Below, one piece after another: positions 29,500 through 63,575 of a DNA stretch of 64,000 nt; within the stretch, counting starts at the first letter, position 1; each line of letters starts with the position of its first letter. Source of the stretch: Lingula anatina (taxonomy: Eukaryota > Animalia > Brachiopoda); assembly GCA_051362555.1 (NCBI GenBank), contig CM120646.1, forward strand, positions 1,860,001-1,924,000, given 5' to 3'. The position numbers and the translations under genes were made by a program. The notes under the pieces were generated by a model, which was not told the DNA's origin, did not search any database, and was given only the letters and a program-made list of their open reading frames with translations.

Positions 29500-29597
29500 T
29501 GGATATAAGTGAATGCTTGTTACTCGCTTCCATCATTCTGTTCCTCGGAACACGTAGAGCAAAGACGAGACCATTGCAGTGCATTTGAGTGAACGTG
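29500..29597 (+). promoter_or_regulatory. Core promoter and non-coding exon 1 of peptide gene A
   Basis: TATAAG at ~29504, Inr-like TCATT about 28 nt later, and donor GT|GTAAGT. The same layout is conserved at 52846-52948 upstream of gene D. Confidence 0.6.
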
Positions 29598-29922
29598 TAA
29601 GTATCATTCCTCTTGCATTATAGCTTAAGCCTAGGTAACATTTGCCATCGTCCTTACGGTACATGTTTGCTGTCGGTGACACTCTTTCAGCACGATGACA
29701 GTGCTGAAGCAGGTGATCTCCATGCGAAATTGTGCTGATTCACGACCTCCGTGGCTTCTACGATTTTCAAGCTTAAACTTTTGACAAATTTTGAAAAACC
29801 TAAGCCCGAAGACTGTGGCAATATCGGTCGCAGATGGCATTGCAGAGTTTCCTTGCACCTGTCATATCAGCTTTTTAGTGCAGAATGATTTTAACCATTA
29901 CAGTTATATTTATAGAAACTTA

Positions 29923-30148
29923 CACCCCATTTCCATAGATTTTTAGATCGATCTATCCCTGTGGGGAGTCTCACTAGATTACTGTCATCTTGGCCTGCTT
30001 AAGCGTCTGTCCCGCCTACTAAAAGCTGTAAAGGGATAATTAACTATGGTGTCCGCTCGGCTGACTGCAATTTAGCGTGAACCCCCAGGGAGTTAGGTCG
30101 ATCTAAAACTTAATCTTTAGATCGATCTAAATCTCTGGGAAAGCACCC
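29923..30148 (+). mobile_element. ~225-bp MITE copy 3
   Basis: Near-identical to 5157-5380. Confidence 0.85.
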
Positions 30149-30948
30149 TAAGTTTGTATGTTTCAGATTACACGTGTCTGTCATTGTGGTCACCTCGCCA
30201 GTGGCCATAACCGTTCGACACATTTGTTCGCACTATACTAATAAGATTTTCTACTTATGATTTGCGAGGAGATGTATTATTTGGCACAACGGCTTGCTCA
30301 CTTCGAAAATCAGCATGTCCGGCTTATTTTTAACTGGTAGACTTATTTTTGTCTAATTTTCATAAGCGTATGTGGTGTTTTGCTATTCTGTGTCGTTAAA
30401 TATATTTATCCTAAAGGCTTTTATGTAAGCAGTTGTAACATATAAAAGTTGTATCAAAATTAAAAAAAGTTATTTTGTTTTCTGTTAAAGGTATTCTTTT
30501 TTTTTTTTTTTTTTTTTTTTTTGAACAATTTAGTCTTTTAATTGCTACCGTATACGTGCTATCCTTCTGATGGAGTCATTAGTTTGGTAATATGCTCATT
30601 ATGTCCGTTATATTTAAAACCAGAGGACAGGCCTCATTTCCATTCTGTTATTTTACTGATGTATTTCTTGTATAGAATATCTGTTCCTGATAAAATTGAA
30701 GCAGTTGTTTTTGCAACAGTTTCTTTGTTTAATGTGTCTATATTGGCCTTAAACGGCACCTACGTACGTATTAAGTTGCAATATAAATCTGTTATAAGTC
30801 CATGGTCCCTCATTGTGCCCAGTATTCGTAACCATGCGAGAGGTATGTCAAGTGTAAAAAACAAGTGCCCTGCAATTATCGCGACAATAAGCATGCAATG
30901 CTATCTTATAAATAATGCAGATTATATTTACCTTAAAAATTTCAGAAA

Positions 30949-33900
30949 ATGACTGGAACTCTAGCTGCCATATTGGTGGTAGCCTGTGTTATGGCTGCTA
31001 TCATACAGGAAGCCGAGGCAGCCTGTTGTCGTAAAGATAGAGGATGGTATTGCGCAGACTGCACGAAGGTGGGCATATAGTTTTTTGTTTGCTTTTTATT
31101 GTTACCACCGTTGAACTTATTGTGCGTTACTTCAGATAGTAATGTGGATGTAAGGTCTTGATGTACAGGACTGTACCTTAGGTTAAAAATTGACTAATGA
31201 TACACTGTCAGGCTACCAAATTGTTTCATGCCAAATATCACCTGTCTGTCCACATATTTTTTACATTTTGGTTCTATAGGCACATCTTTGCACCACGTTA
31301 CGGTTAATCGGTTCGTTTAAAAGAGTATTCAAAGGCCTGAAAGGCAAAGCCGTGGAAAGATTTACTTTGAAGCAGCCCGCAAACTGCAAAACGAGCAAGA
31401 TAATTCTTAACATATAAGCGTGGCTTGTACTACTGAACGAGGTGTAAAATTTGCCCCGTCCCTTACACACAGCGCAATAAAAAATCAATATGTTATACCT
31501 CTTGTGAAATTCTCGTTTTTTGTTTGACCAGTAGCAATTAATGTTTTATTATATATGTCACTCCTGTGCTTTACTTCAGTGCATATTTTAATAAAAGTGC
31601 ATATTTTAAAACAACATACCGTTAAAGCTTCAATGGCCCTGATTCATTTTACACTGTCAAAGGAAATTTCCAAGATAATTATTTAGTTTTTTTGCTTAGT
31701 GTGTATTGTTGATAATATCTATGCAAAGAGGCATCATTATGAATATTTATTATATTTAGCAGATGAGAGAATACTGTAAACGAAATGGCTGCACTTGAGA
31801 GTGTTTTTCCGAGTACTGGCGAATTTGTCAAAAGTAACCTCCATGGTCAAGATTCGTACCAAAGAGCAGATCAAGTATAACTGCAGTATTTTAAGATATC
31901 TTTGAGGCTATACCTTAGGTTCTAGATCTCGGTATTGCCAGCTCGATCTTGAAACCACGGCTAGTGCGTAGAACAAAATACTCGGCCGTGCTGTATTCGA
32001 TATACAAACACGTCATGTTCGAGTGCGTTCCACGGTCTGTTGCACTCCCGTCACTCACTAGTGTAGCAGCCTGCGGCTCGACAATACACTCGTAATATTT
32101 CACGTACAGCTCGGCCACTCCTATTCAGGCCTACCCAACTACCAGACTCGGCACCGTATGATCCTGAATTCACCGGTAGATCAGACCACACTACCCGTTT
32201 TCAAGGTGTGTGTCAGATCGCATTACACAGTATCATACCCTGAACAAATTTTGAGTGGTGATGCAATAATTTTCAACCCCGCTGAGGATCGTCACTATCA
32301 CATCGCGTACTAGGCAAGAGCGGTGTCGCGTCTGATACTGTGAAATGCGTACTGATACACACCTTGAAAACGGGTAGTGTGGTCCAATTTACCGGTGAAT
32401 TCTGGATCATTCGGTGCCGAGTCTGGTAGTTGGGTAGGCTTGCTATTGTATCTATCACATAACCCACATCAGCAATACGGCAATACTGCACTGTAAAATT
32501 GTGTTGATTTTGTGTTAATCAAAATTACAGAAATAATGTGAAAAAAGTAAGCTTTCCATCAGACACGGACTAAACAGGATTTAAGAGCCCCTCCACTTTC
32601 TCATCATCTCTCCTTAAACAGTACAGAACATTCTAATCCCAATACATGTCACGTGAGCCGCGTTCTCCAATCCAGAGGATGCTATGCAAAATACTTAACT
32701 TTGATTTTTTTAATGTTGTCATTTTCTCCATTAGTTGTTCAACAATTAAGTCTTTGTGAAAAAATTCCTTTAGAAGTAGAATGAAATCATTCGTTAATGA
32801 CTGTTTTTCTTTGTCATTTCACACTTTGAAGTATGGGGTGACACTTTTTTGGTAGGGATGTTTATATATTCAAAGCTATTTTAAACATTTATTTTTATGT
32901 TTATATGAAGATGGGATTGAAACTAATAAAAAGAAAATAGAAATTAAAAGAGACATAAATTTACCAAAGTGATCTTTTAAATAAGAAGCAGAGGTTTTTT
33001 AATTTCTCATTATGCCTTCAGAATTGTTGTTTTTCTTTCCGCCTTCGTTGAATTTACCCACTTTGTCATAGTAATGTATTGGGACTTCCTTGTTGTTTCA
33101 CGTTATTCAGCTACATGTAATAAGAGCATCATTTTACAACCTATCCTTTGTAATACGGATTCCAACTTGTTCGCATTAAGTACTCCTATACTTTACAGCC
33201 ATCACTTCACTGGTTTACAATATTTAACTAGAAAAGCTCTCAGAGAGCGCACACCTCCGCCAAGGCAGCAAAGTCTTCATCCAATGCCGTTTCACCCCTA
33301 ATTTTCGATATTTTATTATTGATTATTGATTGATTATTGATCTGGATCATCACCAAAAACTACTCATCTGTTCCTTGGCCCACTTCTGACAGTTCCTGAA
33401 AATTTCATCAAAATCGATCCATAACTTTTTGAGTTATGTTGATGACAGACAGGCAGAAAGACAAACAGAGGTGAAAACATAACCTCCTTGGCGGAGGTAA
33501 AAATATTGTACAAACAAAACTTAAGTCCAGGTTCTCCTTGAGGACACTGGCTTTGAGAGCATACATGAGCTTGCCAGTGTCATGGAGAACCGTAGGGTAG
33601 AAATCTATTTATGCTGTTGGTTAATTAATGAAGTTGACGGTCGACTGCGACCGATATGATTGATACTGACTGATTGAATATTGTAATTTTTCTTCCAGGC
33701 GACTCCATATTGCGGATATGGGAGTTGCAATATTTTTGGCTGCGCTTGCAAAGACGGTTGTCGCAAGAGCTGCAATCCCACATACCAGTATGAGTATGTA
33801 TTCAAGATATCAAAGTCCGTGTTATATTCTTCTCTTTCCTCGGTTGGTTTATTGTAGTACGGCCCCGTTTGAGAGTAAAACAAAAAGTAATACTTTCCGT

Positions 33901-34586
33901 GCCGACAACTGGCCGATCACTGAGCATTCATTCTGAAACGAAAGCGATGCTTGTGCTTCCTTTCCTCCACCACAGCGATGCCAGTTCATGGTCACACAAT
34001 AGACGCAGAAAGGACGCCGTCCAGTGTAAAGGGGGGTTTAATGAATTTTGAATTAATAAAAACAGCGATGGTAACAGCAACATATGGATGTCTAGAGGTA
34101 ATATAATCAAGATACGGTGCATGTAATGGACTAAATAATTTACGCAAATATTTAAATCCTTTCAGACGGTTTCTCCTTGATCCGGTCGGATGTAAGTGTT
34201 CGAAGAAACGCTCAATGTCGGATGGAGGCGGTGGCGTTATTGATCTTATGGACGCAGTCAGTGATTTTAATACAGACAAGTATGAAGTAGAAACTGTAAA
34301 TACATGTATATATAAGACACATTAGACACTTTGTTATTTATTTATTTATTTATTTATTTATTGTTGTTGTTGTTGTTGCTGTTGGCTATAACCACAGCAG
34401 AAGTACACATCAATATGCATGTGCGTGGTCATTAAAAAGTATTTTATTCATATTGTAAAAGATTTTGTTTCTGTTGTCATGGTTAATTTCATGAATATGA
34501 ACATGTTCTTATCCTGCGGTTTACGTTATTACCAAAATGAATATGTATATAAATTATTTTTCAGAGGTGATTACATGCATAATTGA
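30949..34586 (+). CDS. Mytimycin/Diedel-like 12-Cys secreted prepropeptide A (type I, 116 aa). Exons: 30949-31068, 33699-33793, 34166-34279, 34565-34586
   Basis: MTGTLAAILVVACVMAAIIQEAEA|ACCRKDRGWYCADCTKATPYCGYGSCNIFGCACKDGCRKSCNPTYQYERFLLDPVGCKCSK-KR-SMSDGGGGVIDLMDAVSDFNTDKGDYMHN*. GT-AG junctions with intron phases 0, 2, 2 shared with paralog D. Confidence 0.88.
32128..32440. mobile_element. MITE with ~80-bp terminal inverted repeats in a gene A intron
   Basis: GCCTACCCAACTACCAGACTCGGCACCG...CGGTGCCGAGTCTGGTAGTTGGGTAGGC. Confidence 0.8.
33226..33500. mobile_element. Helentron-associated (HINE/DINE-like) short element; longer relative at 54402-54813
   Basis: Subterminal inverted CCTCCGCCAAGG / CCTTGGCGGAGG, a core repeat and a (GACA)-type microsatellite. 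Confidence 0.65.
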
Positions 34587-37128
34587 TTTTGGAGAATTTG
34601 ACCTGGATCTGAAAAAAGCAATTGAATGACAGTAGTCACAGCATTTAGATGAAATCTGGCTATAGCTTGCTCGTACGACACATCTTATTATCAGCTTTAA
34701 ATAAAAAAAAATATGCAATTGGTTAATCTGCCATTGTCGCTAAATTTCGATTGTTGAATAACTGCTTTCTTCTCTTTTGCTCATTTCTGTAAAACTATTT
34801 CCTTATGGAATAAAGCGCTAGCTCAAATTTTGGAATGGGCTTTAGTATAGTGCAATTTAAAAAGGAATATGAAGATCGATCGGGTAAGTGATGTTAATGC
34901 CACTGTTTTGTGGGACAAAATGAGCATCTATACACTGCGACACCAGGCGCAGTCAAAGGGTATTTTGTTTGCATCCTGCATATTCGATTAACTTTAAGTA
35001 GTAAAAACAAACTACTAAATCTAGAGAACTGCATGAAAAAAAAAAACACCTACTTCCATAACAGAGACTGCCATTGTACAACTACTGGTGAATTAAAAAT
35101 CATTATTAAAGATTAAATTTCCTCAGTTGATAAGAACTAAATATAAATAAATTTCAATAAATGCAACGGTGAAATACATGCGGAAAGGCAACGGAAATAT
35201 ATCAAGAGAAAAACAGAAAAGAAATTGAAATGAAAATCTAGAAGAAACTTTGCCTACCTGAAAAAGACATATACAATATAGGTGAGACACACCCTGCCAC
35301 AAACATGGTTTATCTCGGGACTAAGAGAGCAAACAATGAAATAAATACGGAAAGTTTAAAGAAAATAAAAAGAGTGAAACAACTGAGTAAAAAACTATAA
35401 AGGAATAGAATTTTTCATCTAGAAGAAACTAAAATACGATGTATTATTTCAAGACAGCAGTGAGAAACCAGTCCCAGTACAAACGTGGCACACGTACAAC
35501 TCATCTCCGGGCCAGTTGATCGAGCGCACGAGAGAAAAAGAGATTTCGGAATCACATGAACGAAACACAGTTGCACGGCAAATACAGTCAAGATCTACAC
35601 ACCACTAACGCATTCAGTAATGCTTTCGAGTGAAAAGATTTCAGGCGAAGACAAGTCGAATAAGATAAGATGACAGTGACAACACACCACTAATGTATTA
35701 TGCTTCTATTTGCTACAGTAGTACTGACTACACACTTCTAAAATGATATTATTGCGACTGTTGAACTCTATTTTTGTTTGACATTTCTGCTGAGGCAATT
35801 TGCCAACGCAATCATAATCGTCAGTGAAAGCTATTTATTTCCTTTAAATCGTCTTCGACCCGTGAAACTGAAGCTTTCAAAACAGAGTCGTGATCTCTTT
35901 TCATATTACTTTCTTTAGTTTATAGATATAGTTCCTCAAGAAGTGACAGATCATTATCGTCCAATAAACCGAGGGTTTTGTGAAGTAATGTTTTAAAGTT
36001 AACTGTTAACCAGGTGCACGTGTTGGTAATGCATATGTCCTAATTATGTGGAGAATAAAAAAGATTTTTTTTTCAAATAATTACTGGCTGTCAGTTTTTA
36101 GAAAGCTTCTGTGACTTTTGTTTAGGATAACTTTGGCGCTTAATTATTATAGTGGTTGCAAAAACCCATTCAGTCATTCATACGTTTTTAAAAAACCATG
36201 CCGTTTTGCATCACGCTTTCTTTTATTTTGGCTTTTGGTAAATAAATATTCTGTCAAACGAACCGTTTTTCCATATTTCATGTCAGATCGATGATAACGA
36301 TTCTGCATTAGGCAAAAAAGGTTAAGGACTTTCACATCAAAGTTCTATTTTTTCAGTAGTCCGACTGACTATGGTACTAGCCCTGAATCATTTTGTGAGA
36401 TTAATTATACAAAATTCAAATCCGGACAAGATCTTTATTGCATACAGAAATGGTTTCACAGAATAAGGCAGAAGAGCGCGTAGAGAGAAGCTATGGGAAA
36501 TACAGACTCGTTACAATAAATTAGATCAAGGTTTTAAGGAAAATCTGAATATAATGCAAAATAATGAGGATTGTACGCATCTGGTTTTCAGCAATTCCAG
36601 ACCAATTTAATCATCCGTATCCATGCCCGCATCACGTCTTACTTTGGAGATTGCTCTAGTGTCTGAAACAGAGTTGATTTATGAAATGAACATGAATGCC
36701 TGGGTATCGTAGACGAACATTTACCTAGATATTTTATGAATTTAATTTGCAATGGTTTACAATCATGGCCCTGAGGAAGATAAACTTGAATTAACCTGAA
36801 TTGCGGTTTAGCATAATTTGATTATAATTAAATTGGACGGAAGCTAAAAAGACGTACAAGCATAATGTTAGGAGATAACAATTAAGACCGATCATGTTTT
36901 TTTTTCTTGAGCAATGCGAAAATTGCCAATGTCCCATAAATAGCGTTTTCCTTTTTTTTCAATTTTCTATGAAGCTGATAACAGCTGCAAGTTTCATTCA
37001 GGGAATATAACAAATAAGATGTAATATGAAATACAAATTTTAGAAGTAGAAATGCAAAATTCAGTATGTCAAAAATGAGACACGCTTTATTCTTACATTC
37101 CCTCCTTACCTGTATCCAGATCTTTGCA

Positions 37129-38636
37129 TCATATCTCTGGATCAGTACCGGCGTCTTCAGCGTCCCACACTGACCGTTTGTTTGTACACGTGCACTTGGT
37201 TGGTACCCCTACCCCCGTGAGGAGAAAAGGTCTGAAATATGCAAATTTATGTGTGTAAGTTATCATTCCAGGGTTTTATTTGAGTCGGCGACAACAATGT
37301 CGAGTGAAGTCAGGGCTTCGTATCTCGAAATGTTCGCTATGTTGCGAACGTGCGCAAGTGTCTCGATTCCATAACCGATTCTATTTCGAGATACGGGCCA
37401 TGGAATCGAGACGCTTGCGCACGTGCGCAACATAGCGAACCTTTCGAGATACGGAGCCCAGGAAAACAAAACAAAATTCGCGTACAATTTACTATTATAT
37501 GTGGGGCGCAGGTTTGGATAAATAATTTGTCTCAATCTTTGTTGTTTTGGAGAAAGAAAAGGAAGTAAGAATCTATTGAAGTGCGGGGTCTTGCTGGGCT
37601 CCCCCCGTTGTCAATCAACGCTTATATCAATTGAGTTATGCTCAAAATGTTAAAACATTGAAATGCAAGAGCAAAATCAATGTTAACGTGAAAGTTGGAT
37701 TGTCGATTGAAAAGAATAGTGATGGAAGAGAGCAGCATGAAATTTGGAAAACAGCATAAAACAGCATAAGTCCATAGAATACGTACATAAAATTACTTAA
37801 TTGTCTGCCGCAGTCACGTCGACACCCTCCAGCACAGGCACAGCCGAAAATGTTACATCCGCCGTATCCGCAATATGGAGTTCCCTAAAGACAAAAGTAA
37901 CACATCTATTTACATAAACATGTTAAACTAAACAGCGCAAAATGAAGTCCATTCGTTTTATTTCTCATGTAGAGAGCAATCAAAAATCGATGTTTTTGCA
38001 AGTAAAGGCCTTTTTATTAATTAATTAATTTATTTTTTGGCCACGTCAGTAACGTAGCGTTGTACTTTAGCCTTGTGTATGTTGACAAGGAGCTGAATAT
38101 GTTACAAAGTTGAGTTTCACATTCTGTCAGAAAAAAAATGCAAAAGTTTACTTAAAAATTTAATGTAAATTTAATTTCTGAAAAGTTTATGGTTTAATTG
38201 CCTATTAGTATGACACGTTATGCTCGATAAGAAGTATTGTTACGTCTGGTTTGAAAACGCACACTGTTACTGTTGCCGACAGTGTCGTCGGCAATTTTTG
38301 TTTCATTTGTTTGTGTTGTTTGTGTTGTTTGTGTTGTTGTTTTTGTATATGCAACAGTTACTTTCTTTAGAGTGAAAATATACACCAGGTCGCTTCTACA
38401 CATGTAAAAGGCCTATTCATTCACAACAGATAGTGTAACCTGTATTATTAATCAATAATTTTCATTCAAATGATAAAAAAACTAAGTAATACATAAAGTC
38501 AGACTAAATTACCCACCTCGGTGCAGTCTGCGCAGAACGTATGGACCACTTTTCTACAACAAACAGATTCAGTTTCTTCAATCAGAGTGGATGTTAAAAA
38601 CATTCCCAATAGAAAGCCAGCCAAAGCTCCTACCAT
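37129..38636 (-). CDS. Mytimycin/Diedel-like 12-Cys prepropeptide B (type II, 106 aa). Exons: 38636-38517, 37884-37787, 37231-37129
   Basis: MVGALAGFLLGMFLTSTLIEETES|VCCRKVVHTFCADCTEGTPYCGYGGCNIFGCACAGGCRRDCGRQLSNFIPFLLTGVGVPTKCTCTN-KR-SVWDAEDAGTDPEI*. Confidence 0.88.
37314..37458. mobile_element. Palindromic MITE copy 2 with CAG duplication, in a gene B intron
   Basis: Paralog C has the empty site aaagtCAGgaaaac at ~46281-46294. Confidence 0.9.
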
Positions 38637-38807
38637 CTTCTGAAATTTAAAACGAAAAATAATGTCATAGTCAGAGCTTTAGAGCACAGATTATGGTATG
38701 ATCACTACGGTAATCTTAAAAAAAAATTTGGACATAAACTTTGAGTAGACAAAGGAACTCGAGAAGTGGTGCATGGCGACAACGTGCTTTGACCTGTCAA
38801 GCAGCAA

Positions 38808-40657
38808 AGGATGAGTGCGAATAAGGGGGTAAAAGTGCCCACCTTTGTACATGAAAAATAAATCGTGAATAAATGGGAAAAAATGATGCCAAATTGTAGT
38901 TTGGGTCTTATACTTATATGATCCAATTAAAAAAATTTTTTTGGAATTTTGAAACTAAAAAATTAAGGTCAAAATGACCTTGTCATATCTTCATGAAAAT
39001 GTGTTTTAGGGGGGTTCTGAAGAACAATGCTACATATCTATAGTAATAGTAAGGTGACAACTGTGAAATTTTGCAATTGGGTACAGAAGGTGCCCATGTA
39101 AAAAAGAAAGACAATAAGTGGCCAATCATTGTTTGTGATCAATATTTTGATTGCTTTATTCTTACATGTAGTGCTGATTGAAAGGAGAATCTCACAGTGA
39201 CTTGAGGATAAAAGATGTTCATTTTTTATATGAGCCCCTGCCTCACACAAGCTAATTTTTCACGGTTGAAAAGACATGAATATAAGGTGAGACATATGTG
39301 AAAATCAGCTTGTCTGAGGGTTGGGCTTGATATGTACTCAAACTAAATAGGGACATTTTCAGTCCATCTGCTAGCAGTTGGCCATGTTTATTCCTGCCAT
39401 GATTTAGCTGCTATATGCTTACATAGGATGTACATGTAATGCATGCTATATAAAAAAAGGAAAATGTGGATAGGAAATAGAGTCCAAATACAGTAAGTAT
39501 ATCTTATTTCCATTCTTATTTCTTAGGATTAAGAAAGATTAAATGGAAAATGTGGTTCAGACATTCAAAGTGATATTAATTATCATAATAGCAGATGTGC
39601 AAATGGTGGCTCCTACTTTATATAGAGACCCATGCTGTAATAGACCTCTGCACATAAGGGTGGCTTGACCCAACCCTCTGTAATGGGCATGAAAGTACAT
39701 TTTGTACAACCAAAATTGTTGTGTAAATATCCCCTTTTACGTCTATTTTGCATAAAAAGTCAAATAAAAGGCTCCATCACACACACCCTAGTTTTGTTAC
39801 TTATGACCTAATTTTCTACACCAGCACTATTCATAATCTAGCCACCAGTACACATTATGGATTCAGACCTTCCATAGAAAAACTAGACCTATCAGTGGCT
39901 GGTACTTGCAGTGTATTTTCATTCAGTTTTTACTTTCATCTTATCGTTATTTTGGTACTCTTTATACCTTGTTTATTTTATGGTTAATGGAAACATTCCA
40001 AATAGCTGTTTAGAGTGCTTTTACACATGATTTTTTGTTGTTACTATAACAGCCTTTTTCTTTTAGCATTTTTTACTATTCCTTAGAGCCTTGTACAAAA
40101 TGTGTATTGGTTAACAATGCAATTATTTAGACCAACAAATGCTGGTCTGTGAGAAAAGGTATATAAAATTAATAAATACACTGAAACAAGTTTTCCTAGT
40201 TACAAGACTTTTATACAATAAAGTGAAATCAGTGATGGCTTCTGTGAGAAAATACCTTAATACACCACCACCCCTCCCTCTCTTCTCTAGGATTAAAAAA
40301 AAACATTTCTTTCATATTTGCTTGTGCCACACCACAAATGTTTAACATGGAACTCTTTTCTACACCACAAGACAAGTTTCATTAGAAAAAAATCATTTAT
40401 GTAATATATATGCTGAAACAAGTTGCTCTGATTCATACTATATATATGATTCATACTCTGATAGACTGCATACAACAGGTAAATCCGGCTAATACCCCCC
40501 CCCCCCCACATATAACTCATTAAAAATACTAAGTTACGATGCCTCAAACCAAATAATATTTTTCCATGCAACAAATATATGCATAAACTTTATAATAGCA
40601 AATTATTTTAAAATTTTGACGATGGGCACTTTGCCAATGGTTATCAGCACTCACCCT
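38808..40657. mobile_element. 1.85-kb non-autonomous TIR element specific to the gene B 5'UTR intron
   Basis: Ends AGGATGAGTGCGAATAA / TTATCAGCACTCACCCT plus inverted AAAGTGCCCA. The flanks are contiguous in paralog E (~61245-61275). Confidence 0.7.
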
Positions 40658-40874
40658 TTCAATGACGAGTGCAAGTCCATGGGTTTCTATTCATTGATTT
40701 ATTTCAATCTGCTTTTCTTAACATTTATGTTGTTATTGGTAACACTATTTAAATGTATACACGTTATAAAAAAGTCAATTGATTAAGTGTGATATTCAAT
40801 TCTAAAAATTCGATAATGATTTTAATGTAATGGTAATTTAAATGATTTAAAAATCCGCAATGTGAATGTAAGAC

Positions 40875-41086: not shown

Positions 41087-41089
41087 TTA

Positions 41090-43538: not shown

Positions 43539-43630
43539 TGTTGGTAGATATATTACAAAGTGATAACCAGTAGTTTGCGGTCTTCAGTCTTGTAATGAAT
43601 GAAGCAAGCGGCGACTAGTATTTAACATGA
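43539..43630 (-). promoter_or_regulatory. Putative non-coding exon 1 and core promoter of gene B (homologs at 49165-49262 for C and from 63542 for E)
   Basis: Minus strand reads TTAAATA...GCTTGCTTC..TCATT...|GTAAGTATC, echoing the type I promoter and donor. The full layout is conserved in B and C; the donor end is also present in E. Confidence 0.5.
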
Positions 43631-46134
43631 AATTCACTGTTACAAAAACAAACTGAGTGCTTTTGCAATCATCCGAGAATGAAGGTACTTTTTAAGCGAT
43701 TTGTAGGTTAAAAAGCATTATTGCTTTGTCATTGCGTGCATTCTGTGGTAGACAAAAACACGTATCTTTCAAACCATGAAAGGCAGTTTTTAGGATGGTA
43801 GCGCATTTTGTATGAGACAGCTTTGATGCATAATTATTATAGCGGTTGAAAAAACCAATTCAATCATTTAGAAGCTTTGAACAGTTAGGTGGCTTTACAT
43901 ATTTTTTTTCTCAAAACATTGTCAATCTTTAAAGATATAGAATTAACAAACCGCTTATATTGATAAGTTTATTGATACGTATTATTATTATTATATTTAT
44001 GGAAGTGTTTTCTCTGCCGACCCAGCAGAAAATGCATACGTTAGTATGTGTTCATTTATCTCTGTGTGTGTGTGTGTGTGTATGTGTGTGTGTGTGTGTG
44101 TGTGCATTAAATTGTCACTGTCGCTTGAGGCATTACGTTGGTTACAGATGCTCTGGTATAAAACGCGTTTGTATTTCCATTGGAGAATGATCTTTTCATC
44201 TTTGGGGTGCAGCAGTTTCTTCAGGGTGTTTAAAAGGTATTAAGGAGTTCATCCTATATTCATTTTATGCACACGAGAGCTTCTCAATCGGTTCTCTTGT
44301 CTGTAGCATGAAAATCGTGCCATGGCGGGCTGTTGCATTTTGCGCCGTAGCTGAGATGTACTTGGAAAACTCAACTTTGCCAGTAGTAGTTTTCTTTAGT
44401 ACTTGCATATTTACCAACTGATAATCCGAAAGCAAAGTAAAAAAAAATGTTCATTTTTGTACTTTAAAGATAATGATCTGATTCACAACAACTCTATACA
44501 TCTAAAGAAGATAAGCAGTTGAAGCTACATTACACGCTAGCATCTGTGTATTTTACTTTTTTTAGAATTTCTTACTCTTGCGGATTGTAGTTGGACACTG
44601 TACGTAGGACTCTATTGTGATTAGTATCTGTAACTGAAATATCAACGATTTCTTAGGAATAGATTGAAAATCCAATTGGATTTATTCTTTTAATTGCTCT
44701 CTTTTTCTCAAGACCGTGCCTCAACAATTACATGGTCGATTCTGAAATTTTACGCGTCATTCTGTAAAGCAGAAAAAGACGGAGTTCACGCAATTGGCTA
44801 ACTGAGCCAGGACTTGAAAAGAAAAGGACTTTACAAAATGGAGTTTTAGCAAGAAGAGAAAGACACACGCACAAAAAATGAGCCAAAAACGGTTTCAAAC
44901 ACAGATGGAAACGCGCGTGGATTATAAGAACTGCAACATTGAAGAAGTGACAGATCATTATCGTCCAATAAACCGATTGTTTTGTGCAGGTATGTTTTTT
45001 TAAGTTAAGCGATTACGTCTTGGTAATGTATGTATGTATTCTAATTATGTGGAGAAAAACAAAGTTTTCCAAATAATTAATGGCTGTCAGTTTTTAGAAA
45101 GCTTCAGTGACTTTTGTTTGGGATAACTTTGATTCTTAATTATTATAGTGGTTGCAAAAACCCATTCAATCATTCGTACATTTTTAAAAAGTTATGCCGT
45201 TGTATATCATGCTTTCTTTCATTTTGGCTTTTTTCAAATAAATGTACTGTTAACTAATAGTTTGTGCAGAGAAATTCAACAAACCGTATTGCTATATTTC
45301 ATGTAAGATTGATGATAACAATTCTGCACTAGGCAAAAAAGTTAGGGACTTTTACAACAAAGTTCCATTTTTTCAGTAATCCGACTGACGATGGTTCTAG
45401 CCCTGAATCTCATTGTGAGAATACTTATACAAAATTTTAATCCGGACGAAATCTTTATTTCATACAGAAATGGTTTCACAGAATAAGGCAGAAGAGCGTG
45501 TAGAGAGAAGCTATGGGAAATACAGACTCGTTACAATAAATTAGATCAAGGTTTTAAGGAAAATCTGAATATAATGCACTGAAAGCAAAATAATGAGGAT
45601 TGTACGCATCTGGTTTTCAGCAATTCCAGACCAATTTAATCATCCGTATCCATGCCCGTATCACGTCTTACTTTGGAGATTGCTGTAGTGTCTGAAACAG
45701 AGTTGTTTTATGAAATGAACAGGAATGACTGGGTATCGTAGACGAACATTTTTCTAGATATTTTATGCATTTAATTTGCAATGGTTTACAACCATGGCCC
45801 TGAGGAAGATAAACTTGAATTAACCTGAATTGCGGTTTAGCATAATTCGATTATAATTATGTTGGACGGAAACTAAAAAGACGTACAAGCTTAATGTCAG
45901 GAGATAACAATTAAGACCGATCACTTTTTTTTTCTTAAGCAATGCGAAAATTGCCAATGTCCCATAAAAAGCGTTTTCCTTTTTTTCAATTTTCTGTGAA
46001 GCTGATAACAGCTGCAAGTTTCATTCAGGGAATATAACAAATAAGATGTAATAAGAAATATAAATTTTAGAAGTGGAAATGCAAAATTCAGTATGTGAAA
46101 ATTGAACAGCCCCTCCTTACCTGTTACCGGCGTC

Positions 46135-47336
46135 TTAAGCGTCCCACACTGACCGTTTGTTTGTACACGTGCACCTGGTTGCTGCCCTTGTCCCCGTGAT
46201 AAGCCAAGATCTGAAATATACAAATTTATGTAAGTTATCATTTCAGGGTTTTATCTAAGTGGGCGACAACAATGTCGAGTAAAGTCAGGAAAACAAAACC
46301 AAATTCGCGTACAATTTACTATTATATGTGGGGCACAGGTTTGGATAAATGCTTTGTGTTAATCTTTGTTGTTTTGGAGAAAGAAAAGGAAGTAAGAATC
46401 TATTAAGGGGTCCCGCTGGGCTCCCCCCCCTTCTCCCCGTTGTCAATCAGCGCTTATATCAATTGAGTTACGCTCAAAATGTTAAAACATTGAAATGTAA
46501 AAGCAAAATCAAAGTTTACGTCAAAGTTGGATTTTCAATTGAAAAGGATAATGATGGGAGAGAGCAGCATAAAATATGTAATATAGCATAAAACAGCATA
46601 AGTCCATAGAATACGTACACAAATCCACTTAATTGTCTGCCGCAGTCACGTCGACACCCTCCAGCACAGGCACAGCCGAAAATGTTACATCGGCCGTATC
46701 CACAATATGGAGTTCCCTAAAGACAAAGTAACACATCTATTTACATAAACATTTTAACATATACAGCGCAAAATGCAGTCCATTCCTTTTTTCATGTAGA
46801 TTGCAATCAAAAACCGATGTTTTGGCAAGGAAGGGCCTTTTAATTTTTTTTTATTTTTGGCCACGTCAGTAACGTAGGGTTATACTTAGCCTTGTGTATG
46901 TTGACAATGAGCTGAAAATGTTGCAAAGTTGAGTTTCACATTCTGTCAGAAAAAAACTACAAAAGTTTACTCAGAAATTTTATGTACGATTTCTGAAAAG
47001 TTTATGGTTTAATTGCCAATTAATATGACACGTCTGGTTTGAAAACGCACACTGTTACTTTCTTTAGAGTGAAAATATACACCAGGTCGCTTCTACACAT
47101 GTAAAAGGCCTATTCATTCACAACAGATAGTGTAACCTGTATAATTAATCAAGAATTTTTTCACTCAAAGAATAAAAAAAACAAAGTAATACATAAAGTC
47201 AGACTAAAATACCTACCTTGGTGCAGTCTGCGCAGAACAGTTTGGTCACTTTTTTACAACAAACAGATTCAGTTTCTTCAATCAGACTGGATGTTAAAAA
47301 TATTGCCACCAGAAAGCTAGCCAAAGTGCCTACCAT
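46135..47336 (-). CDS. Mytimycin/Diedel-like 12-Cys prepropeptide C (type II, 97 aa, shortened tail). Exons: 47336-47217, 46716-46619, 46210-46135
   Basis: MVGTLASFLVAIFLTSSLIEETES|VCCKKVTKLFCADCTKGTPYCGYGRCNIFGCACAGGCRRDCGRQLSGFVSWLITGTRAATRCTCTN-KR-SVWDA*. Confidence 0.86.
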
Positions 47337-48626: not shown

Positions 48627-49614
48627 GGACATTATCAACCTCTGACTAGTTTTATCGTGGACAAACAGTTTAATACAGATTCCTTGTGGAACACATCCTG
48701 GAAGAAACTATTTTGGTCCCGACATGAAAATTATGTTTGGGATTTTATTAGGATCAATTCAAGTTCCCTGGCAGATACGATACAAAATTGTCCCAAGATA
48801 CCTGTACTTCTCCAACTTTAAGATAATGTCTTTTAACTCTATACGCAGCTTTAGACCTAACTACTTTGATTACAACGTCTTAAATAAAATAACGGGTACG
48901 TAACCACTCTATGGTTCGAGCAATAATAATCGAAATACGCATTAAGCGATATTTATTTACTATTGTGCTCTAGTGATGTATAGAAAATAAAAACATGCAC
49001 CGACTTCGAAAGACTATCGACTACGTTATGCTAGCCTATTTCTGAATACCAATTTGTTTAAATGAGCAGGATATCACCAGTATCAATTCTATACGGGGTT
49101 AAATTAAATATGTAAGGTGTTGTATAGTAGTTTACACCGTCCATACATAATGAATGATACTTACAGTTGGTAGATATAATAGAAATGGATAACCAGTAGT
49201 TTACGGTCTTCAGTCTTCAGTCTTTTAATGAAGGAAGCAAGCAGTGACTAGTATTTAACATGAAATTCACTTCTACCCAACAAACTGAGTGTTTTTACAA
49301 TCAACCAAGAATGATGGTACTTTTTAAGCGTTGTTAGCATCTGATTGGTTAATAAGCATTATTGCTTTGTCAGTGCGCGCATTCTGTGGTAGACAAACAC
49401 ACGTTTCTCTCAAACTATGACAGTCAGTTTTTAGGATGGTAGCGCTCTTTGTTTGAGTCAGTTTTGATGCATAATTATTATAGCGGTTGCAAAAACCAAT
49501 TCAATCATTTAGAAGCTTTGAACAGTTAGGTGGCTTTACATCATTATTTTTTTCTCAAAGCATTCTCAAGAGAGAGTTAACAAACCGCATATATTGACAC
49601 GTTTCTTGAAGTGT

Positions 49615-52845: not shown

Positions 52846-52948
52846 ATATAAGTGCATGCTTGTTACTCACTTGCATCATTCTGTTCCACCAGAACACCTA
52901 GAGCAAAGACGAGAGCATCGCGGTGCGTTTGACTGAACAGAGAACGTG
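52846..52948 (+). promoter_or_regulatory. Core promoter and non-coding exon 1 of peptide gene D
   Basis: TATAAG, TCATT and donor GTAAGT; homologous to 29500-29597. Confidence 0.6.
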
Positions 52949-53859: not shown

Positions 53860-56800
53860 ATGGCTGGATCTCTAGTCGGCATTTTGGTGGTAGCCTGTGT
53901 AATAGCCACTGTCATACAGGAAGCCCAAGCAGTTTGCTGTGGTAGATACAAGGGTCCGTTTTGCAAAGACTGCACAAAGGTAGGCATAACAACTTTTGAT
54001 CACTGTTAATTGCAAACGCCGTTGAACTAGTAGCCAGCTGCTTCGATAGTGCTGCTAGCTGTGGAAAGACTAGGGCCCGTATTCCAGAATCTCCCTTTAG
54101 CGTTAAGGGAGACATAAAGTCGACCTTATACGAAATTTGTATTCCAAGACCTTTCTTTATCTCACTTGAAAGGAATCACTTAACAATCATCCTTAGCAAA
54201 GGAATCGGTCATTTCTAGAATCTGCCTTTGCTTAAAGATTTCCTGTATTTTCGGCTGAGGATTCCTTAAAATGCAAGGTTCGTCTGGAGTAACTTTTAGT
54301 CTTCCTTAAGCAGCCATCGTGTACAGTTCTCTTGTGAAAATCAGCTCCATGGAGTACTATGTAAACCAGCATGCCTACCTAATTTCAAAATCATTAAATT
54401 CAACTAGAAAAGCACTCCGAGAGCGGGGACCTCTGCGAAGACAGCAAAGTCTCCACCCAATTTTCATTCCATAATGATTTAGTTTTTTGATTTTTGATTA
54501 TTGATTGATCATTGATCTGGATCACTACCAAAAACTAATCTTCTGTTCCTTGGCCCACTTGTGACAGTTCCTGAAAATTTCATTACAATCGGCCCATAAC
54601 TTTTTGAGTTATTTTTGATTTTTGATTATTGATTGATTATTGATCTTGATGACCGCCAAAAACTAACCACTTCTAAGTTAACCCATTTCTGACATACCCT
54701 GAAAATTTCATCAAAATAGGCTCGTAACTTTTTGAGTTATAATGATGACAAACAAACAAACAGACAGATAGACAAACAAACAGGGGTGAAAACAACCTTT
54801 TTGGCAGAAGTAATACATTTGATCGAGGATAGGCTTTTCTCTGTTGACTAGTTGCATTAGTAGCAGCTTTTCTATATCAGAAAAGGGTCTACGACTTTGG
54901 TTTTCTCATCCTCCATTCTTTTCTCTTCTTGGCATACTTGCTTTATTCGCTAAATTTGGCTTAGATCAAAACATCCACATGCAATGATAATGTCCATATG
55001 CGCTGTTGCATGACTGAAGTTGATCAGTTGACCCCAATTATACAACATTACTGAGGCGTTTTTAACGAGGAGGGTGTCACAAAGGCCTTCTCTAACCAAC
55101 GAGGAGCTCCTTTATGTCAGTGTCCCTTACCTAAAGGCTGACTTTTGTCAAAGTAATTCCTTATCAAAGGAGAGGCTAAAGTGTGGTCTTAGAATACCAT
55201 TTCGTTAGGCCTTCCTTTACCAAGGAACACCTCATCAAAGGAAGCCTTTATAAAATTTGACCTTAGGCCTATTTTAAGGAACATCTTGGAATACGGGCCA
55301 ATATGTGAATTCTAAAAAAAAAAAAGATACTCTTTCAATCAAACACGGACTTAGCAGGATTTAAGAGCCCTCTTTCCAAGCCATTTGACATTTCTCGCCA
55401 TCTCTACTTAAACCAGACAGAACTTTCTAATCCGATGCCATGTCACGTTAACTGCTTTCTTAAATCCAGGGGCTGCTGTGCAAATACTTAACTTAGTTGT
55501 TAAAAAGTTAAGTTTTTGTGAAAAATCATTTTAGAAGTAGAATGAAATCTTTTGTCAAAGACTTTGTTTGTCTTGTCATTTTACACTTTAGTACGAGGTG
55601 ATACGTCTTTGGTAGAGGAATATATATCCAAAGCTATTGTAAATTTTTATCTTTATGTTTATATAACATATAATAAAATGATAATTATTCATTTCTTAAA
55701 CACCTCACACACCTCATACAAAAATGCAAACTACAAAGATAGGTTTGAAAGTAATCAAAAAAAAAAATTAATGTTAAAAAAGACATAAATTCACCAAAGG
55801 TTGAGATTTTTTATGTTTCATAATACCGTAAGAACTGTCGTAGTACTTATTCCACCTTCGTAAAATTAACCCACTTGATTGCAGTGCTTTGTTTGGACTT
55901 CATTGTTATCTAACGTGATTCAGCTTATACTGGTATCAATTTACAGCCCAGGGGCGGATCCCGTATTATTTAAAGGGGGTCCACGGATGCAAAGCAGACC
56001 CTCCCCCCCCCCCCCCTTGGCGTGGAGTTCGGGGCCCAGTGAAGGGCCCCCAAAAATTGGGATTTTAGAGGGCGAACGGTGCCATGATTCCCCTGACCCC
56101 CCCTGCAGCCTATCCTTTGTAATACATGTTCCAATTTGTTTGCAATTAGAACTATTCTACTTTGCAGCCATCACCTCATTGGTTTACAGCCTTAAAGTAG
56201 GCTTATGTTAAATTAAACACTACATGTATATCAAATACAGTCTGTAGTTGGCGGACTGCATATTGTAACTTTTCTTCCAGGGGACTCCGTATTGCGGATA
56301 TGGGGGCTGCAATATCTTTGGCTGCGCTTGCGAAAACGGTTGTCGCAAGAGCTGCGATCCCAAATTCAACTATGAGTATGTATTCAAGATATTAAAACCC
56401 ATGTCATATTGTTTTCCTTCCTCGATTGATTTTTTTGTCAGAAAATAGTCACCTCTTAATGGATTTTGACTAAATAAAAACAGCGATGGTAACAGCAACA
56501 TATGGATGTCTAGAGGTAAAATTATTTTAATAATTTTAAGGTATGTGTAATCTTAAAAGATACGGAGCATGCCATGGAGCAAATCATTTACACATACATT
56601 TAAATTTTTTTCAGTATGATGTTCGGTTATCCGCTCGCGTGCGGGTGTTCGAATAAACGCTCATTGTCAGACGGGGCTGTTCTTATGGACGTGGCCAGTG
56701 ACCATGACACAGGCAGGTATGGAGTAGTAACTGCAAATACGTGTATTTACACACACTGGACAATAGAAGTGTCACCCCCTGAATCAGAGTAATCAAGGTT

Positions 56801-57292
56801 ATAAAGCCTGGTCTACTTATAATGTAACTAATGAGTATAAAACCGCTGTACCATGGGATTGTATTGTTGGTCTTTTTGTGAAATTTGATGTTAATAAAAT
56901 GATACCAGGAGCATATCATTCCACAGTCATTTATCTCCCCAAAAGTATTGGTTCAGTAGGGGTGACACTTCTATTGTCCAGTGTGTGTATAAAACACGAT
57001 GGACACTTTGTTATTTATTTATTTACTTATTTATTTATAATTATTATTGTTGTTGTCGCTGTTGTTGTTGTTGTAGTCTATAACCACATCAGAAGAACAC
57101 ATCAATATACATGTGCTTGGTCGATAAAACGTACTTTATTCACATCGACTTAAGGTTTTGTAAAAGATTTAGTTTCTGTCGTCATGGATGGATTTCATGA
57201 ATATGAACATGTTCTTATCCTGTGATTTACGTATTTACCAAGATGAATATGTATATATCTTCTTTTTCAGAGATGATTACATTCGTAATTAA
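53860..57292 (+). CDS. Mytimycin/Diedel-like 12-Cys prepropeptide D (type I, 112 aa). Exons: 53860-53979, 56281-56375, 56615-56716, 57271-57292
   Basis: MAGSLVGILVVACVIATVIQEAQA|VCCGRYKGPFCKDCTKGTPYCGYGGCNIFGCACENGCRKSCDPKFNYDMMFGYPLACGCSN-KR-SLSDGAVLMDVASDHDTGRDDYIRN*. Confidence 0.88.
54074..55299. mobile_element. 1.2-kb Harbinger-like non-autonomous element with a nested HINE-like element (54402-54813)
   Basis: Perfect 13-bp TIR GGCCCGTATTCCA / TGGAATACGGGCC, and many internal CCTT/AAGG motifs. Confidence 0.7.
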
Positions 57293-59872: not shown

Positions 59873-61084
59873 TTATATCTCTGGATCAGTTCCGGCGTCT
59901 TCAGCGTCCCTCACTGACCGTTTATTTGTACATGTACACTTGGTTGGTACGCTTAAATTGACAAACCCATGATCCCTAAAATATGCAAATTTATATGCTA
60001 TGTAAAAGTTACTTTTTCAGTGTTTTATTAAAGTGGGCGAAAGAAAAAGGCGAGTGAAGACAGGAAAACAAAACCATATTCGCAGACAATTTAATTATTA
60101 TATGTGGGGCATAGGTTTGGATAAATGCTTGTTTTAATCTTTGGTGTTTTGGAGAAAGAAAAGAAAATGAGGATCTATTGGAGGGGCATGGTCTCACTGA
60201 GCCCACCCCAATCCATTGGATTGCGCTCAAAATGTCAAAACATTGAATGCAACAGATTGAAAATCAATGTTTACGTGCAAGTTGGATTTTGAAAAAAAAT
60301 AGTGATGGGAGAGAGCAGCATAAAGTGTACAGTATAAGTCGTACGTATAATCACTATATGTTCCACCGCAGTCACGTCGACACCCTCCATCACAGGCACA
60401 GCCGAAAATGTTACATCCGCCGTATCCGCAATATGGAGTCCCCTAAATGCAAAAGACACATCAATTTATATGTTAAACAATGCAGTGCACAATACAGTCC
60501 ATTAGTTTTATTTATTTTGTAGAGGGCAACCAAACATCGATGTTTTGGCAAGTATAAGGGCCTTTTCATTTTTTGGCTAATTCGGTAACGTATGTTGAAC
60601 TCAAGCCTTGCGTATGTTGACAGTAAGGTGAAAATAATATTGATTGTTGCAAAGTTGAGTTTCATATTCTGTCAGAAAAGAAATACCGAAGTTTACTAAA
60701 AATTCTTAATGTACGATTTCTGAAAAGTTTATGGTTTAATTGCTAATTAATATGACACGATATGCTCGAAAGGAAGCATTGTTACGGCTGGTTTTAAAAT
60801 GCACTCCATATTTGGAGTAAAAAAATACAACTGGTCGCTTCAATACATGTAATAGCCCTATACATTCACAACAGATTGTATACCTTGCATTATGAGTATA
60901 TTTTTTTCACTCAAATAATAAAAAGAAAACAAAATAACACATTAAGATAGATGCAAATACCCACCACGGTGCAATCTGCGCAGTATTGATGGGCCTTCTT
61001 GTGGCAACAAGCAGATTTAGTTTCTTCAATCAGAGTGGATGTTAAAAATATTGCCACCAGAAAGCCAGCCAAAGTTCCTATCAT
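59873..61084 (-). CDS. Mytimycin/Diedel-like 12-Cys prepropeptide E (type II, 106 aa). Exons: 61084-60965, 60442-60345, 59975-59873
   Basis: MIGTLAGFLVAIFLTSTLIEETKS|ACCHKKAHQYCADCTVGTPYCGYGGCNIFGCACDGGCRRDCGGTYSDYTDHGFVNLSVPTKCTCTN-KR-SVRDAEDAGTDPEI*. Confidence 0.88.
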
Positions 61085-62270
61085 CTTCTGAAATTTCAAA
61101 CGAAAAATAATGTCATAGTTACAGCTTTAGAGCTAAGATTTTGGTATGATCAATACGGTAATCTTAAATATTGTATTGTACATAAAGATTGAGTAGACAA
61201 AGGAACTCGAGAAGCGATGCAGGGCGACACCGTGCTTTGATCTGTAAAGCAGCAAGTTTCAATGACAAGTACAAGTGCATGGATTTCTATTTACTGATCG
61301 ATTACAATCTGCTTTTGGTAACACTTATTTAGTTATTGGTATTGGTAACACCATATAATTTAACTGTGTTTAAAAAAATTCCCTTTGTTATTCAATATAT
61401 AAAATGTTGATAATGATTTAGATGATTTATAAATCCGGATCATGGATACAGTTCTGAATAATGCTAATTCTTTCAGTTTGAAAAATCTACGATCATGTGA
61501 ATTTGATCCAGTTTGCAAAAAGAGTTCTAGTGAATTTGCTGCAAACTCACAAGAACTATTCCTGCAAATCCACTGCAAACATACAAGAAGTGTTTCCAAA
61601 TATGCCGAAAACACTGAATAACTGTTGTTATAACTACTGTTGTTGTTGTTGTTTTGAGAAGCCTAACTCAAAAAGTTATAGATTGAATTAGGAGACAATT
61701 ATCCGGATAGGTTTGAAATAGGATAACTTAAGCTAAATAAGATTTGGTGATAAAGAAGACTCACTGAACCACATTGAAAATCAAACCACAAACACCTAAA
61801 AGATCAATTTTTTTTTCTTAAACCCCTTCAATGCTAATATCAACTTTTAATATGTCTTCGATGCCAAATTGGTATGAAATCATGTCTGACTGAAATCTGT
61901 TGACCCCACCATATCAACCTCTGATTAGTTTTATTGTGAACAAACAGTTGAATACAGATTCCTTGTGAAACAAATCCTGGAAGAAAATTAATTGGCCCGA
62001 CAGCAAAATTATGTTTGAGATTTTATAAGGATCAATCCAAGTTCCCTGCCATATACGATACAAAATTTTCCCCAGATACCTGTACTTCTCCAACTTTGAG
62101 ATAATGTCTTTTAACTCTATACGCAGCCTTTGACCTTACTACTCTGATTTCAACGTCTAAAATAAAATAACGGGCACGTAGCCACCCTATGGTTCGTGAA
62201 ATAATAATTGAAATACGTTTTAAGCGATATTTACTTACTATTGTGCTCCAGTGATGTATAGAAAATAATA

Positions 62271-63352
62271 GAGAGTTTTGGTAAGTCCTTCCGTATGACG
62301 TGTAACGTATAGTTCAATACGTAATACGTTTTACGTACGCGAGAAAGCTAGCAGTGGTTTTGGCAGGTCTCACTCCGTATGTGGTTTTTTATAGGCCTAT
62401 ATATATGGATTACACGAACATGGGGCTGCTTGTGGATTCTTTTTAGATAGATGAATAATGGAAGATGTTGAATGGAATGTGTTATTTACGTCAATTGATG
62501 CTGCAGATCCTGAAAAAAAAATCAACTTAAATTGAATTTGATACTAGAGAGTTTTGGCAAGGCCTTCCGTACGACGTATAACGTGCGACGTCATCACTTT
62601 GTGCGTAGTTTTTCTCAAGGACAAGTCATAAGTCATACGGCACTACGTATGAATCGGTGATTACACGTAGGTAAGAAACGTATCGAATTTAATAGATTTA
62701 CGCTTATTTCTTTCAAGTTTAACATATTGCAGAGGAATATATAGGGTGTTAAGATTCCACTGAATCACTTTTAGACGCTGTCGGTAGAAATACTCTGTGA
62801 AAACAGCTGGAAAAATAGCCAGTCAATCAGTCGTCCGTAGTAGTATCAAATTCAATTTAAGTTGATTTTTTTTCATAAACAACAGGATCTGCGGCATCAA
62901 TTGACGTAAATAACACATTCCATTCATCATCTTAATTATTCATCTATCTAAAAAGAATCCACAAGCAGCCCCATGTCCGCATACGGAGTCAGACCTGCCA
63001 AAACCACTGCTAGCTTTCTCGCGTACGTAAAACGTATTACGTATTGAACTATACGTTACACGTCATACGGAAGGCCTTGCCAATTTTTCCAGCTGTTTTC
63101 ACAGAGCATTTCTACCGACAGCGTCTAAAAGTGATTCAGTGGAATCTTAACACCCTATATATTCCTCTGCAGTATGTTAAACTTGAAAGAAATAAGCGTA
63201 AATCTATTAAATTCGATACGTTTCTTACCTACGTGTAATCACCGATTCATACGTAGTGCCGTATGACTTATAACTTGTCCTTGAGAAAAACTACGCACAA
63301 AGTGATGACGTCGCACGTTATACGTCGTACGGAAGGCCTTGCCAAAACTCTC
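62271..63352. mobile_element. TA-flanked MITE containing an inverted copy of itself
   Basis: TIR GAGAGTTTTGG(C/T)AAG..CTTCCGTA at 62271, 62548, ~63083 (truncated) and 63352. Segment order a-b-c-b'-a'-c'. Absent at the homologous B and C sites. Confidence 0.8.
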
Positions 63353-63575
63353 TAATAAAAAAAACATGCACCAACTTCGAAAGACTATCGCCTACGTTAT
63401 GCAAGCCTATTTCTGAATACCAAATTGTTAAAATGAACAAGAAATTTCCAGTAACAATTCTATCGTAAGTTGAAATAAATCTGATAGGTGCTGTATAGTA
63501 GTTTACGCTGTCCATACATAATTAATGATAGGCCTACTTACAGTTGGTAGATATAATAGAAATGGATAACCAGTA

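Follow-up and report, generated by a model that had tools for sequence, protein, structure and literature searches.

A 64-kb window of the genome of the brachiopod Lingula anatina (contig CM120646.1, positions 1,860,001 to 1,924,000) contains a cluster of five genes, here called A to E, whose products combine the cysteine array of the mussel peptide mytimycin with a core that is also present in the Drosophila protein Diedel. Sequence comparison indicates that mytimycin and Diedel share one disulfide core, the subdomain SD2 of Diedel, and we regard this homology as solid. By analogy with mytimycin we predict, with a probability of about 0.6, that the five genes encode secreted, KR-processed mytimycin-type defence effectors whose targets are microbes, most probably fungi. 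As a gene cluster this is an ordinary defence-gene expansion; the interest lies in the family link. The window sequences join the mytimycin and Diedel families, and that the two also share a mechanism is our hypothesis.

The five genes and their relation to mytimycin and Diedel

A six-frame search of the window for the CNIFGC core returned exactly five matches, at 33726 (+), 37857 (-), 46689 (-), 56308 (+) and 60415 (-). A degenerate DNA pattern of the core likewise had five matches; 100 shuffles averaged 0.01, and none of them reached five. No sixth copy or fragment was found by tblastn within the window. Gene A lies on the forward strand (coding exons 30949-31068, 33699-33793, 34166-34279 and 34565-34586, the last with the stop codon; span 30949..34586). 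It is followed on the reverse strand by B (38636-38517, 37884-37787 and 37231-37129 with the stop; span 37129..38636) and C (47336-47217, 46716-46619 and 46210-46135 with the stop; span 46135..47336), then by D on the forward strand (53860-53979, 56281-56375, 56615-56716 and 57271-57292 with the stop; span 53860..57292) and by E on the reverse strand (61084-60965, 60442-60345 and 59975-59873 with the stop; span 59873..61084). The precursors are 116, 106, 97, 112 and 106 amino acids (aa) long for A to E, respectively, and all frames are open. Donors (GT) and acceptors (AG) are canonical in all five models, the phases agree (0 and 2, and 2 for exon 4 of A and D), and in every gene the first coding exon consists of 120 coding nucleotides (nt) and 3 nt of untranslated region behind the acceptor. 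The models built from these coordinates bear out the original prediction of five intact spliced genes whose first coding exon has 120 nt.

The exon joins are independently supported, because the model of gene A matches the RefSeq protein XP_013416208.1 ('protein Diedel [Lingula anatina]'), which is of equal length, identical at 111 of 116 positions and identical throughout the mature region. Judged by its sequence, this record is an allele of gene A or a very recent copy of it. The cluster had been thought probably unannotated, which does not hold for gene A, as this near-twin is already in RefSeq under an automatic annotation as 'protein Diedel'. Three word-based searches with queries based on gene A found no database record for B to E, a weak negative.

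In all five precursors 24 residues precede the x-C-C motif. They are predicted to form a signal peptide, as originally proposed, from a hydropathy peak of 2.3-3.4 and small residues at -3 and -1 in each gene. Twelve cysteines stand upstream of a KR site, which is followed by an acidic propiece of 5-29 aa with a net charge of -1 to -5. Both the convertase site and the propiece that had been claimed are therefore present in every gene, though the propiece of gene C has only five residues. The cysteines are spaced CC-7-C-2-C-6-C-4-C-4-C-1-C-3-C-3-C-(15 or 20)-C-1-C. Of the invariant 12-cysteine spacing that had been described, the twelve cysteines stand in all five genes, but the long loop before Cys11 differs, with 15 residues in A and D and 20 in B, C and E. 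The predicted mature peptides have 61 or 66 residues (6.6-7.1 kDa) and net charges of +5 (A), +3 (B), +8 (C), +3 (D) and 0 (E).

Residues 25-57 of gene A are identical to Mytilus galloprovincialis mytimycin A at 23 of 33 positions, ungapped, in a comparison made by eye with the supplement of a 2021 genomic survey of the family (PMC8004829; here and below, published work is cited from the available parts of each source). This agrees with the mytimycin homology originally proposed. All named mytimycins were compared by eye, the nearest computed stand-in being an unnamed mytilid-like protein (P0104) with 47% identity over 62 residues. By the same supplement the first eight cysteines are spaced as in mytimycin (0-7-2-6-4-4-1), and the order of the twelve is that of type II mytimycins in all five peptides, up to the terminal C-x-C. 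Mytimycins are built on a backbone of ten cysteines to which further pairs may be added, type II being the form with 12 (PMC8004829). The spacing departs after Cys9; unlike in mytimycin, Cys10 stands three residues past Cys9 and is followed by the loop of 15-20 residues. With the type II mytimycins of Mytilida (A, I, J and K of M. galloprovincialis and those of Modiolus, Perna and Perumytilus) the window genes further share a signal ending before x-C-C, which in mytimycin measures about 23 aa, the CNIFGC block, a dibasic site with an anionic extension, a 5' non-coding exon and tandem expansion. They differ from mytimycin in their brachiopod host and in the absence of an EF-hand from the propiece, which measures 5-29 aa against about 75 in mytimycin. 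One published mytimycin is also without an EF-hand (PMC8004829). Since none of the five window genes has an EF-hand, we file them as mytimycin-type and not as strict mytimycins; in terms of sequence they are a mytimycin-type variant of PF13164 without an EF-hand, neither strict mytimycins nor strict Diedels.

The Diedel side of the relation is seen in exon 2. The exon-2 pieces of all five genes pass the gathering cut-off of the Pfam Diedel family PF13164 (21.3 bits), at 29.9 bits for A, 24.2 for B, 25.4 for C, 27.0 for D and 24.6 for E, while the full-length RefSeq twin of gene A reaches 20.2 bits, slightly under the cut-off. When the family profile was compared with the sequences of the PDB, the sole match was Diedel 3ZZO (E 5e-14). 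The Diedel homology of the original prediction is borne out by these two results. With Drosophila Diedel (CG11501; 3ZZO/3ZZR) the window peptides share a 24-residue signal, the N-terminal CC and the SD2 core C-x4-C-N-I-F-G-C-x-C-x3-C, and the same local fold is predicted. SD2 of Diedel is a unique four-disulfide fold, and its exposed Asn77-Ile78-Phe79 loop was proposed as an interaction site (PMC3307722). The window peptides contain this disulfide core with its N-I-F loop, by the profile match to 3ZZO and a weak structural match to 3ZZR.

What separates them from Diedel is the ferredoxin-like subdomain SD1, which is missing from the window peptides by alignment and cysteine spacing. In the alignment with a Drosophila Diedel-like protein (P0066) the signal and the CC pair are followed by a 25-residue gap, and the C-terminal parts are unrelated; the cysteines are spaced 0-7-2-6 in the window peptides against 0-14-12-4-10, and seven residues follow the CC against about 32 in Diedel. 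The RGD of SD1 is absent as well, and none of the five mature peptides contains RGD or KGD. In turn, the window peptides add C-x2-C, four extra cysteines in the C-terminal part or loop, the KR site and the propiece. A single KGD occurs in the propiece of gene A (34565-34575) and is RGD in the RefSeq twin; it lies behind the KR site in a decayed EF-hand and is probably there by chance.

Structure prediction, which had been suggested as a check, was carried out and gave Diedel as the best match, with weak scores. The AlphaFold model of the peptide, built from a 102-row alignment, has a predicted local distance difference test score (pLDDT) of 80-88 over residues 1-40 and a tail that is not confident; a prediction for the full precursor had scored poorly (pLDDT 54). 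The top Foldseek match was Diedel (probability 0.96, E 0.034, root-mean-square deviation (rmsd) 1.4 over 31 columns). With VIA-align, Diedel was the only chain with Z of at least 2 among 48,161 (Z 3.3, rmsd 2.6, 49 aligned). A search of a viral fold library gave no match at E<=0.001, and a protein atlas search with the mature region gave a Diedel cluster at 0.77, which is below the threshold for a lead.

The cluster had been described as a special hybrid of mytimycin spacing and a Diedel-type ending. This description falls, as 14 of the 39 mytilid mytimycins in File S4 of the survey (from Modiolus, Perna and Perumytilus) already carry the Diedel-type C-x-C-x3-C (PMC8004829). Among these 39 sequences only Mytilus and Limnoperna have shortened the Cys8-Cys9 spacing, to one residue instead of three, and all of the 121 retrieved family proteins have three; the one-residue form is thus derived in Mytilus and Limnoperna. 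One Modiolus philippinarum sequence is identical to the Diedel core at 16 of 18 residues. The proposal that the cluster links the two groups is right in that the link is real, but the link is general and no property of the cluster alone. An unnamed mytilid-like protein reaches 16.2 bits on the Pfam Diedel family, which may explain why the relation is easily missed. The available part of the 2021 survey calls the mytimycin family restricted to Mytilida, with its fold unsolved and its disulfide pairing unknown (PMC8004829), and a 2023 review, as far as available, lists mytimycin without homologues among known antimicrobial peptides (PMC10608444). The 2012 study of the Diedel structure, in its available part, found no relatives outside drosophilids, aphids and insect viruses (PMC3307722).

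The EF-hand tail and the breadth of the family

No in-frame EF-hand was detected in the five window genes with the EF-hand profile of the family. Gene A retains, out of frame, what is left of the second half of an EF-hand loop (IDFGEF..DL), at 34582..34614 on the forward strand, overlapping the stop codon and the start of the 3' untranslated region. This remnant is the only match to the EF-hand profile in six frames of 29-64 kb, at 0.7 bits against a shuffle maximum of 0.3. When one 7-nt gap is placed at the start of exon 4 it scores 12.9 bits, while 12 shuffles that were also allowed such a gap reached no more than 3.0. Stretches in D, B, C and E that were plausible by eye were rejected as EF-hand remnants, with best scores of -2.1, 0.2, -2.0 and 2.1 bits; the shuffle maxima for D, B and E were 2.2-4.7 bits, and C was scored without a null of its own.

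Two other Lingula proteins, both uncharacterised, keep the tail. XP_013393532.1 has the full mytimycin layout, with 12 cysteines, KR and an EF-hand pair above the Pfam cut-off, and XP_013415003.1 has the 12-cysteine array, KR and one EF loop below that cut-off. The array and the KR site are common to these two and the five window genes, whereas the one or two EF-hand loops of the former, which are encoded outside the window, are absent from the latter. Since both proteins carry the tail, it is no mussel invention, and from the sequences it looks older than mussels. The mytimycin EF-hand has been suggested to be acquired from another gene during evolution (PMC8004829). The top atlas cluster of the EF-hand-bearing Lingula paralogue was an unnamed, mostly molluscan EF-hand cluster (0.96). 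In a tree the five window genes and XP_013415003.1 form one clade (support 99/96), and the expansion that had been proposed is thereby upheld as lineage-specific; the tree has 41 rows and 51 columns with deep forks mostly open, and it was built without a venom-labelled row and without most of the unnamed ones. The history is most simply explained by an ancestor with an EF-hand, followed by truncation and tandem expansion.

The family extends well beyond these animals. Of 506 candidates, 133 proteins matched a 23-row profile, and the matches listed include proteins named from Drosophila, aphids, moths, wasps, granuloviruses, mites, amphioxus, basidiomycetes, ascomycetes and Lingula. A search with a 102-row profile yielded 1,049 clusters at 50% identity. 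Among 229 retrieved proteins the core pattern is present in 227, the C-x2-C-x6 lead-in in 43, an EF-loop pattern behind the core in 76, and both of the latter in 37. The full type II pattern with KR occurs in this set in only three Lingula records, so the retrieved set is without any complete named mytimycin. Scans of contigs gave 5 viral loci from 109 candidate stretches and 14 metagenome loci from 402.

Fungal Diedel-domain proteins (Tricholoma, Infundibulicybe, Lasiodiplodia, Aspergillus) resemble the window peptides in their signal, CC and core; a basic site is present in most and a mytimycin-like EF-hand tail in several. Unlike the window peptides, they are without C-x2-C-x6 and the terminal C-x-C. 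The 158-aa protein of Tricholoma matsutake (P0035), with a Diedel core, a polybasic site and an EF-hand tail, has a mytimycin-like layout in a mushroom.

Several loci from the contig scans show further arrangements. An intronless 444-aa gene with a Shine-Dalgarno-like word (L008:1273-2607) lies downstream of an NmrA-family gene and is apparently prokaryotic; its protein combines a signal, a mytimycin-type core, an EF-hand pair and a trypsin-like domain. At L009:1000-1700 a mytimycin-like core, a polybasic site and EF-hand-like stretches are spread across different frames (short introns or frameshifts). A viral contig carries two tandem secreted genes (L001:1953-2630 and 2731-3387), in each of which a compact Diedel core without SD1 is fused to about 150 unrelated residues. 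L011, L012 and L014 contain tandem clusters of intronless genes in which a C-terminal extension with four cysteines follows the Diedel core.

Literature searches, with subscription papers outside their range, found no co-mention of mytimycin and Diedel, of Diedel and Lingula, or of the Diedel domain and a bivalve. Where mytimycin and brachiopods were mentioned together the words were unrelated in the one case checked, and co-mentions of Diedel and EF-hand concerned insect secretions in the parts available.

Tentatively, and with the odds somewhat against it in this full form, we suggest that mytimycin and Diedel are two branches of one ancient family of secreted defence peptides with a patchy distribution, built of an SD2 knot and an EF-hand tail and present in molluscs, brachiopods, amphioxus, mites, insects, fungi, insect viruses and apparently some prokaryotes. 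Insects would have grafted SD1 onto it to yield a cytokine, the brachiopod clade would have dropped the EF-hand and diversified its loops, and all members would use the exposed N-I-F loop against a conserved eukaryotic target. If true, such a two-branch family with a shared N-I-F target gives mytimycin its long-missing fold and points to an unknown antifungal target. The 1.15 A structure of Diedel can serve as a template for the mytimycin core. The block under purifying selection in mytimycin appears to map onto the exposed N-I-F patch of Diedel, which makes a test by mutagenesis possible. The five Lingula peptides, with one core, charges from +8 to 0 and no EF-hand, form a natural series on the roles of core, loops, charge and tail.

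Predicted function and its alternatives

Mytimycin is a haemocyte peptide induced by Fusarium (PMC8004829), and Neurospora crassa and Fusarium culmorum are inhibited by it (PMC10608444). By analogy, the signal of the Lingula precursors would be cleaved after residue 24, and a convertase would cut at KR to release a peptide of 61-66 residues with six disulfides. Residues 1-40 are predicted to fold as the disulfide-knotted SD2 of Diedel, with a 7-residue loop replacing SD1 and the N-I-F loop exposed. The frozen N-I-F loop may then bind a conserved target; charge-driven membrane lysis is disfavoured because the net charge runs from +8 to 0. The loops between the cysteines would diversify under selection and so vary the target range. 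The ancestral EF-hand tail was lost in the clade, as shown for gene A and probably also in the other four genes, and its loss would make it dispensable for the role of the mature peptide.

The pattern of substitution distinguishes the core from the loops. In the 18-codon core the proportion of nonsynonymous differences (pN) is 0.02-0.07 in four paralogue pairs (0.02 for B-C), and the core is conserved under purifying selection, as is the central block of mytimycin. Between B and C the non-cysteine codons of the mature region have a nonsynonymous rate (dN) of 0.22 against a synonymous rate (dS) of 0.03 (Fisher p 0.006), with introns at 0.05-0.07. In four of four pairs nonsynonymous change in the mature region is greater than the divergence of non-coding sequence nearby (p 0.0001-0.006), the pairs not being independent. 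The three older pairs also have a high dS, and dN/dS of their mature regions is below 1. Fast replacement change is usual for defence peptides that face a changing target.

RNA reads were drawn from four runs over 29400-49350 (A to C) and four others over 52600-63700 (D and E), covering 6-30% of each run. Reads covered repeats, and trace depth of up to 0.56 was seen near exon 1 of gene D. This result shows only low or no expression in the samples used.

Several observations weigh against the reading as defence effectors. Transcript junctions had been named as a check on the genes, and none of the listed junctions (at least 3 reads) in the eight RNA runs, whose tissue is not known and which were read over stretches that contain no control gene, was a GT-AG junction; the repeat-free bins of the coding exons were at or near zero depth in the same runs. 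No NF-kB-like site was found upstream of the genes with two patterns. Over the whole mature region dN exceeds dS only in B-C, where the excess is non-significant (p 0.07). The structural evidence is weak, with Foldseek E 0.034 and Z 3.3, and is tied to the sequence match. Of the relatives with both a structure and functional studies Diedel is the closest, and it acts as a cytokine and integrin ligand and not as a microbicide (PMC6072105, PMC9116668). Fungi themselves make family members, including a 158-aa Diedel-domain protein whose gene is the top transcript of the Tricholoma fruiting body (PMC6980582), which is odd for a general antifungal role.

The role of Diedel suggests one alternative, namely that the peptides are host signalling ligands which are released on injury or infection, bind a host receptor through N-I-F and damp NF-kB/JAK-STAT or cell death. 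The part that is conserved is exactly Diedel SD2 with its exposed Asn-Ile-Phe patch (PMC3307722), one window peptide is charge-neutral, and insect viruses carry homologues that limit apoptosis (PMC6072105). We nevertheless consider signalling unlikely: the integrin-binding RGD of Diedel sits in the insertion that is missing from the window peptides (PMC9116668), KR with an acidic propiece is the layout of mytimycin and not of Diedel, and fast loop divergence among recent paralogues is easier to reconcile with a foreign target that changes than with a host receptor.

More improbable still is that the cluster consists largely of silent or decaying birth-and-death duplicates, with open frames but most copies unexpressed. 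The missing junctions, the propieces that end at differing points and the broken EF-hand would fit such a state, as would the 18 pseudogenes among 106 mussel mytimycin variants and the unexpressed clusters described there (PMC8004829). Yet the core and all splice sites are undamaged and 60 of 60 cysteines are preserved although the flanks have diverged by 5-17%, the RefSeq model of the gene A twin has the same joins, and purifying selection on the core together with the excess of replacement change in the loops argues against dead copies. At a similarly low probability we place outward secretion, into mucus, burrow lining or at the mantle edge, of deterrents or antifouling agents against small eukaryotes, in place of blood-borne antimicrobials. 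Secretions of this kind typically contain disulfide-rich scaffolds with hypervariable loops. Family members from parasitoid wasps and a caterpillar venom are named among the matches listed, but we know of no venom system in brachiopods. A family member is also abundant in a mushroom fruiting body (PMC6980582), whereas the closest architecture is that of a haemocyte peptide, mytimycin (PMC8004829).

Putative non-coding exons, duplications and neighbouring elements

A 5' non-coding exon can be proposed for each gene from conservation between paralogues, with outer boundaries that are approximate for B to E. That of gene A (29500..29596, forward) has a TATA-like word near 29505 and a GTAAGT donor at 29597, and is conserved with that of D (52850..52947, forward; donor 52948), near which trace read depth was seen. 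On the reverse strand the putative exons of B (43539..43640; donor 43538, with a second candidate donor at 43334), C (49165..49270; donor 49164) and E (63542..63575; donor 63541) are conserved with one another.

Self-BLAST revealed a segmental duplication, in which 34305-37314, covering the convergent ends of A and B, is repeated as 56982-60064 in D and E (3.1 kb, 83% identity), and it marks gene C as a later copy of gene B. The five proteins are 49-77% identical to one another. Uncollapsed haplotypes were rejected as the origin of the five copies, such proteins being too distant for alleles.

Fragments of a reverse transcriptase (RVT_1) at 41087-41975 and 47694-48625 lie in what would be the first introns of B and C; since they are 87% alike, they were likely inserted before the B/C duplication. 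The inferred first intron of gene E contains a 275-bp inverted repeat (62542-62816 and 63083-63357, 98.5% identical), likely a recent non-autonomous element. Elsewhere in the window, a multi-exon membrane-transporter-like gene with a weak MFS_1 match (E 0.041) is present as a tandem duplicate at 12039-16329 and 22678-26871 (84% identical), and a Tc1-type transposase remnant (HTH_Tnp_Tc3_2, DDE_3) and a DUF3504 fragment are found at 8925-10040 and 20424-20810.

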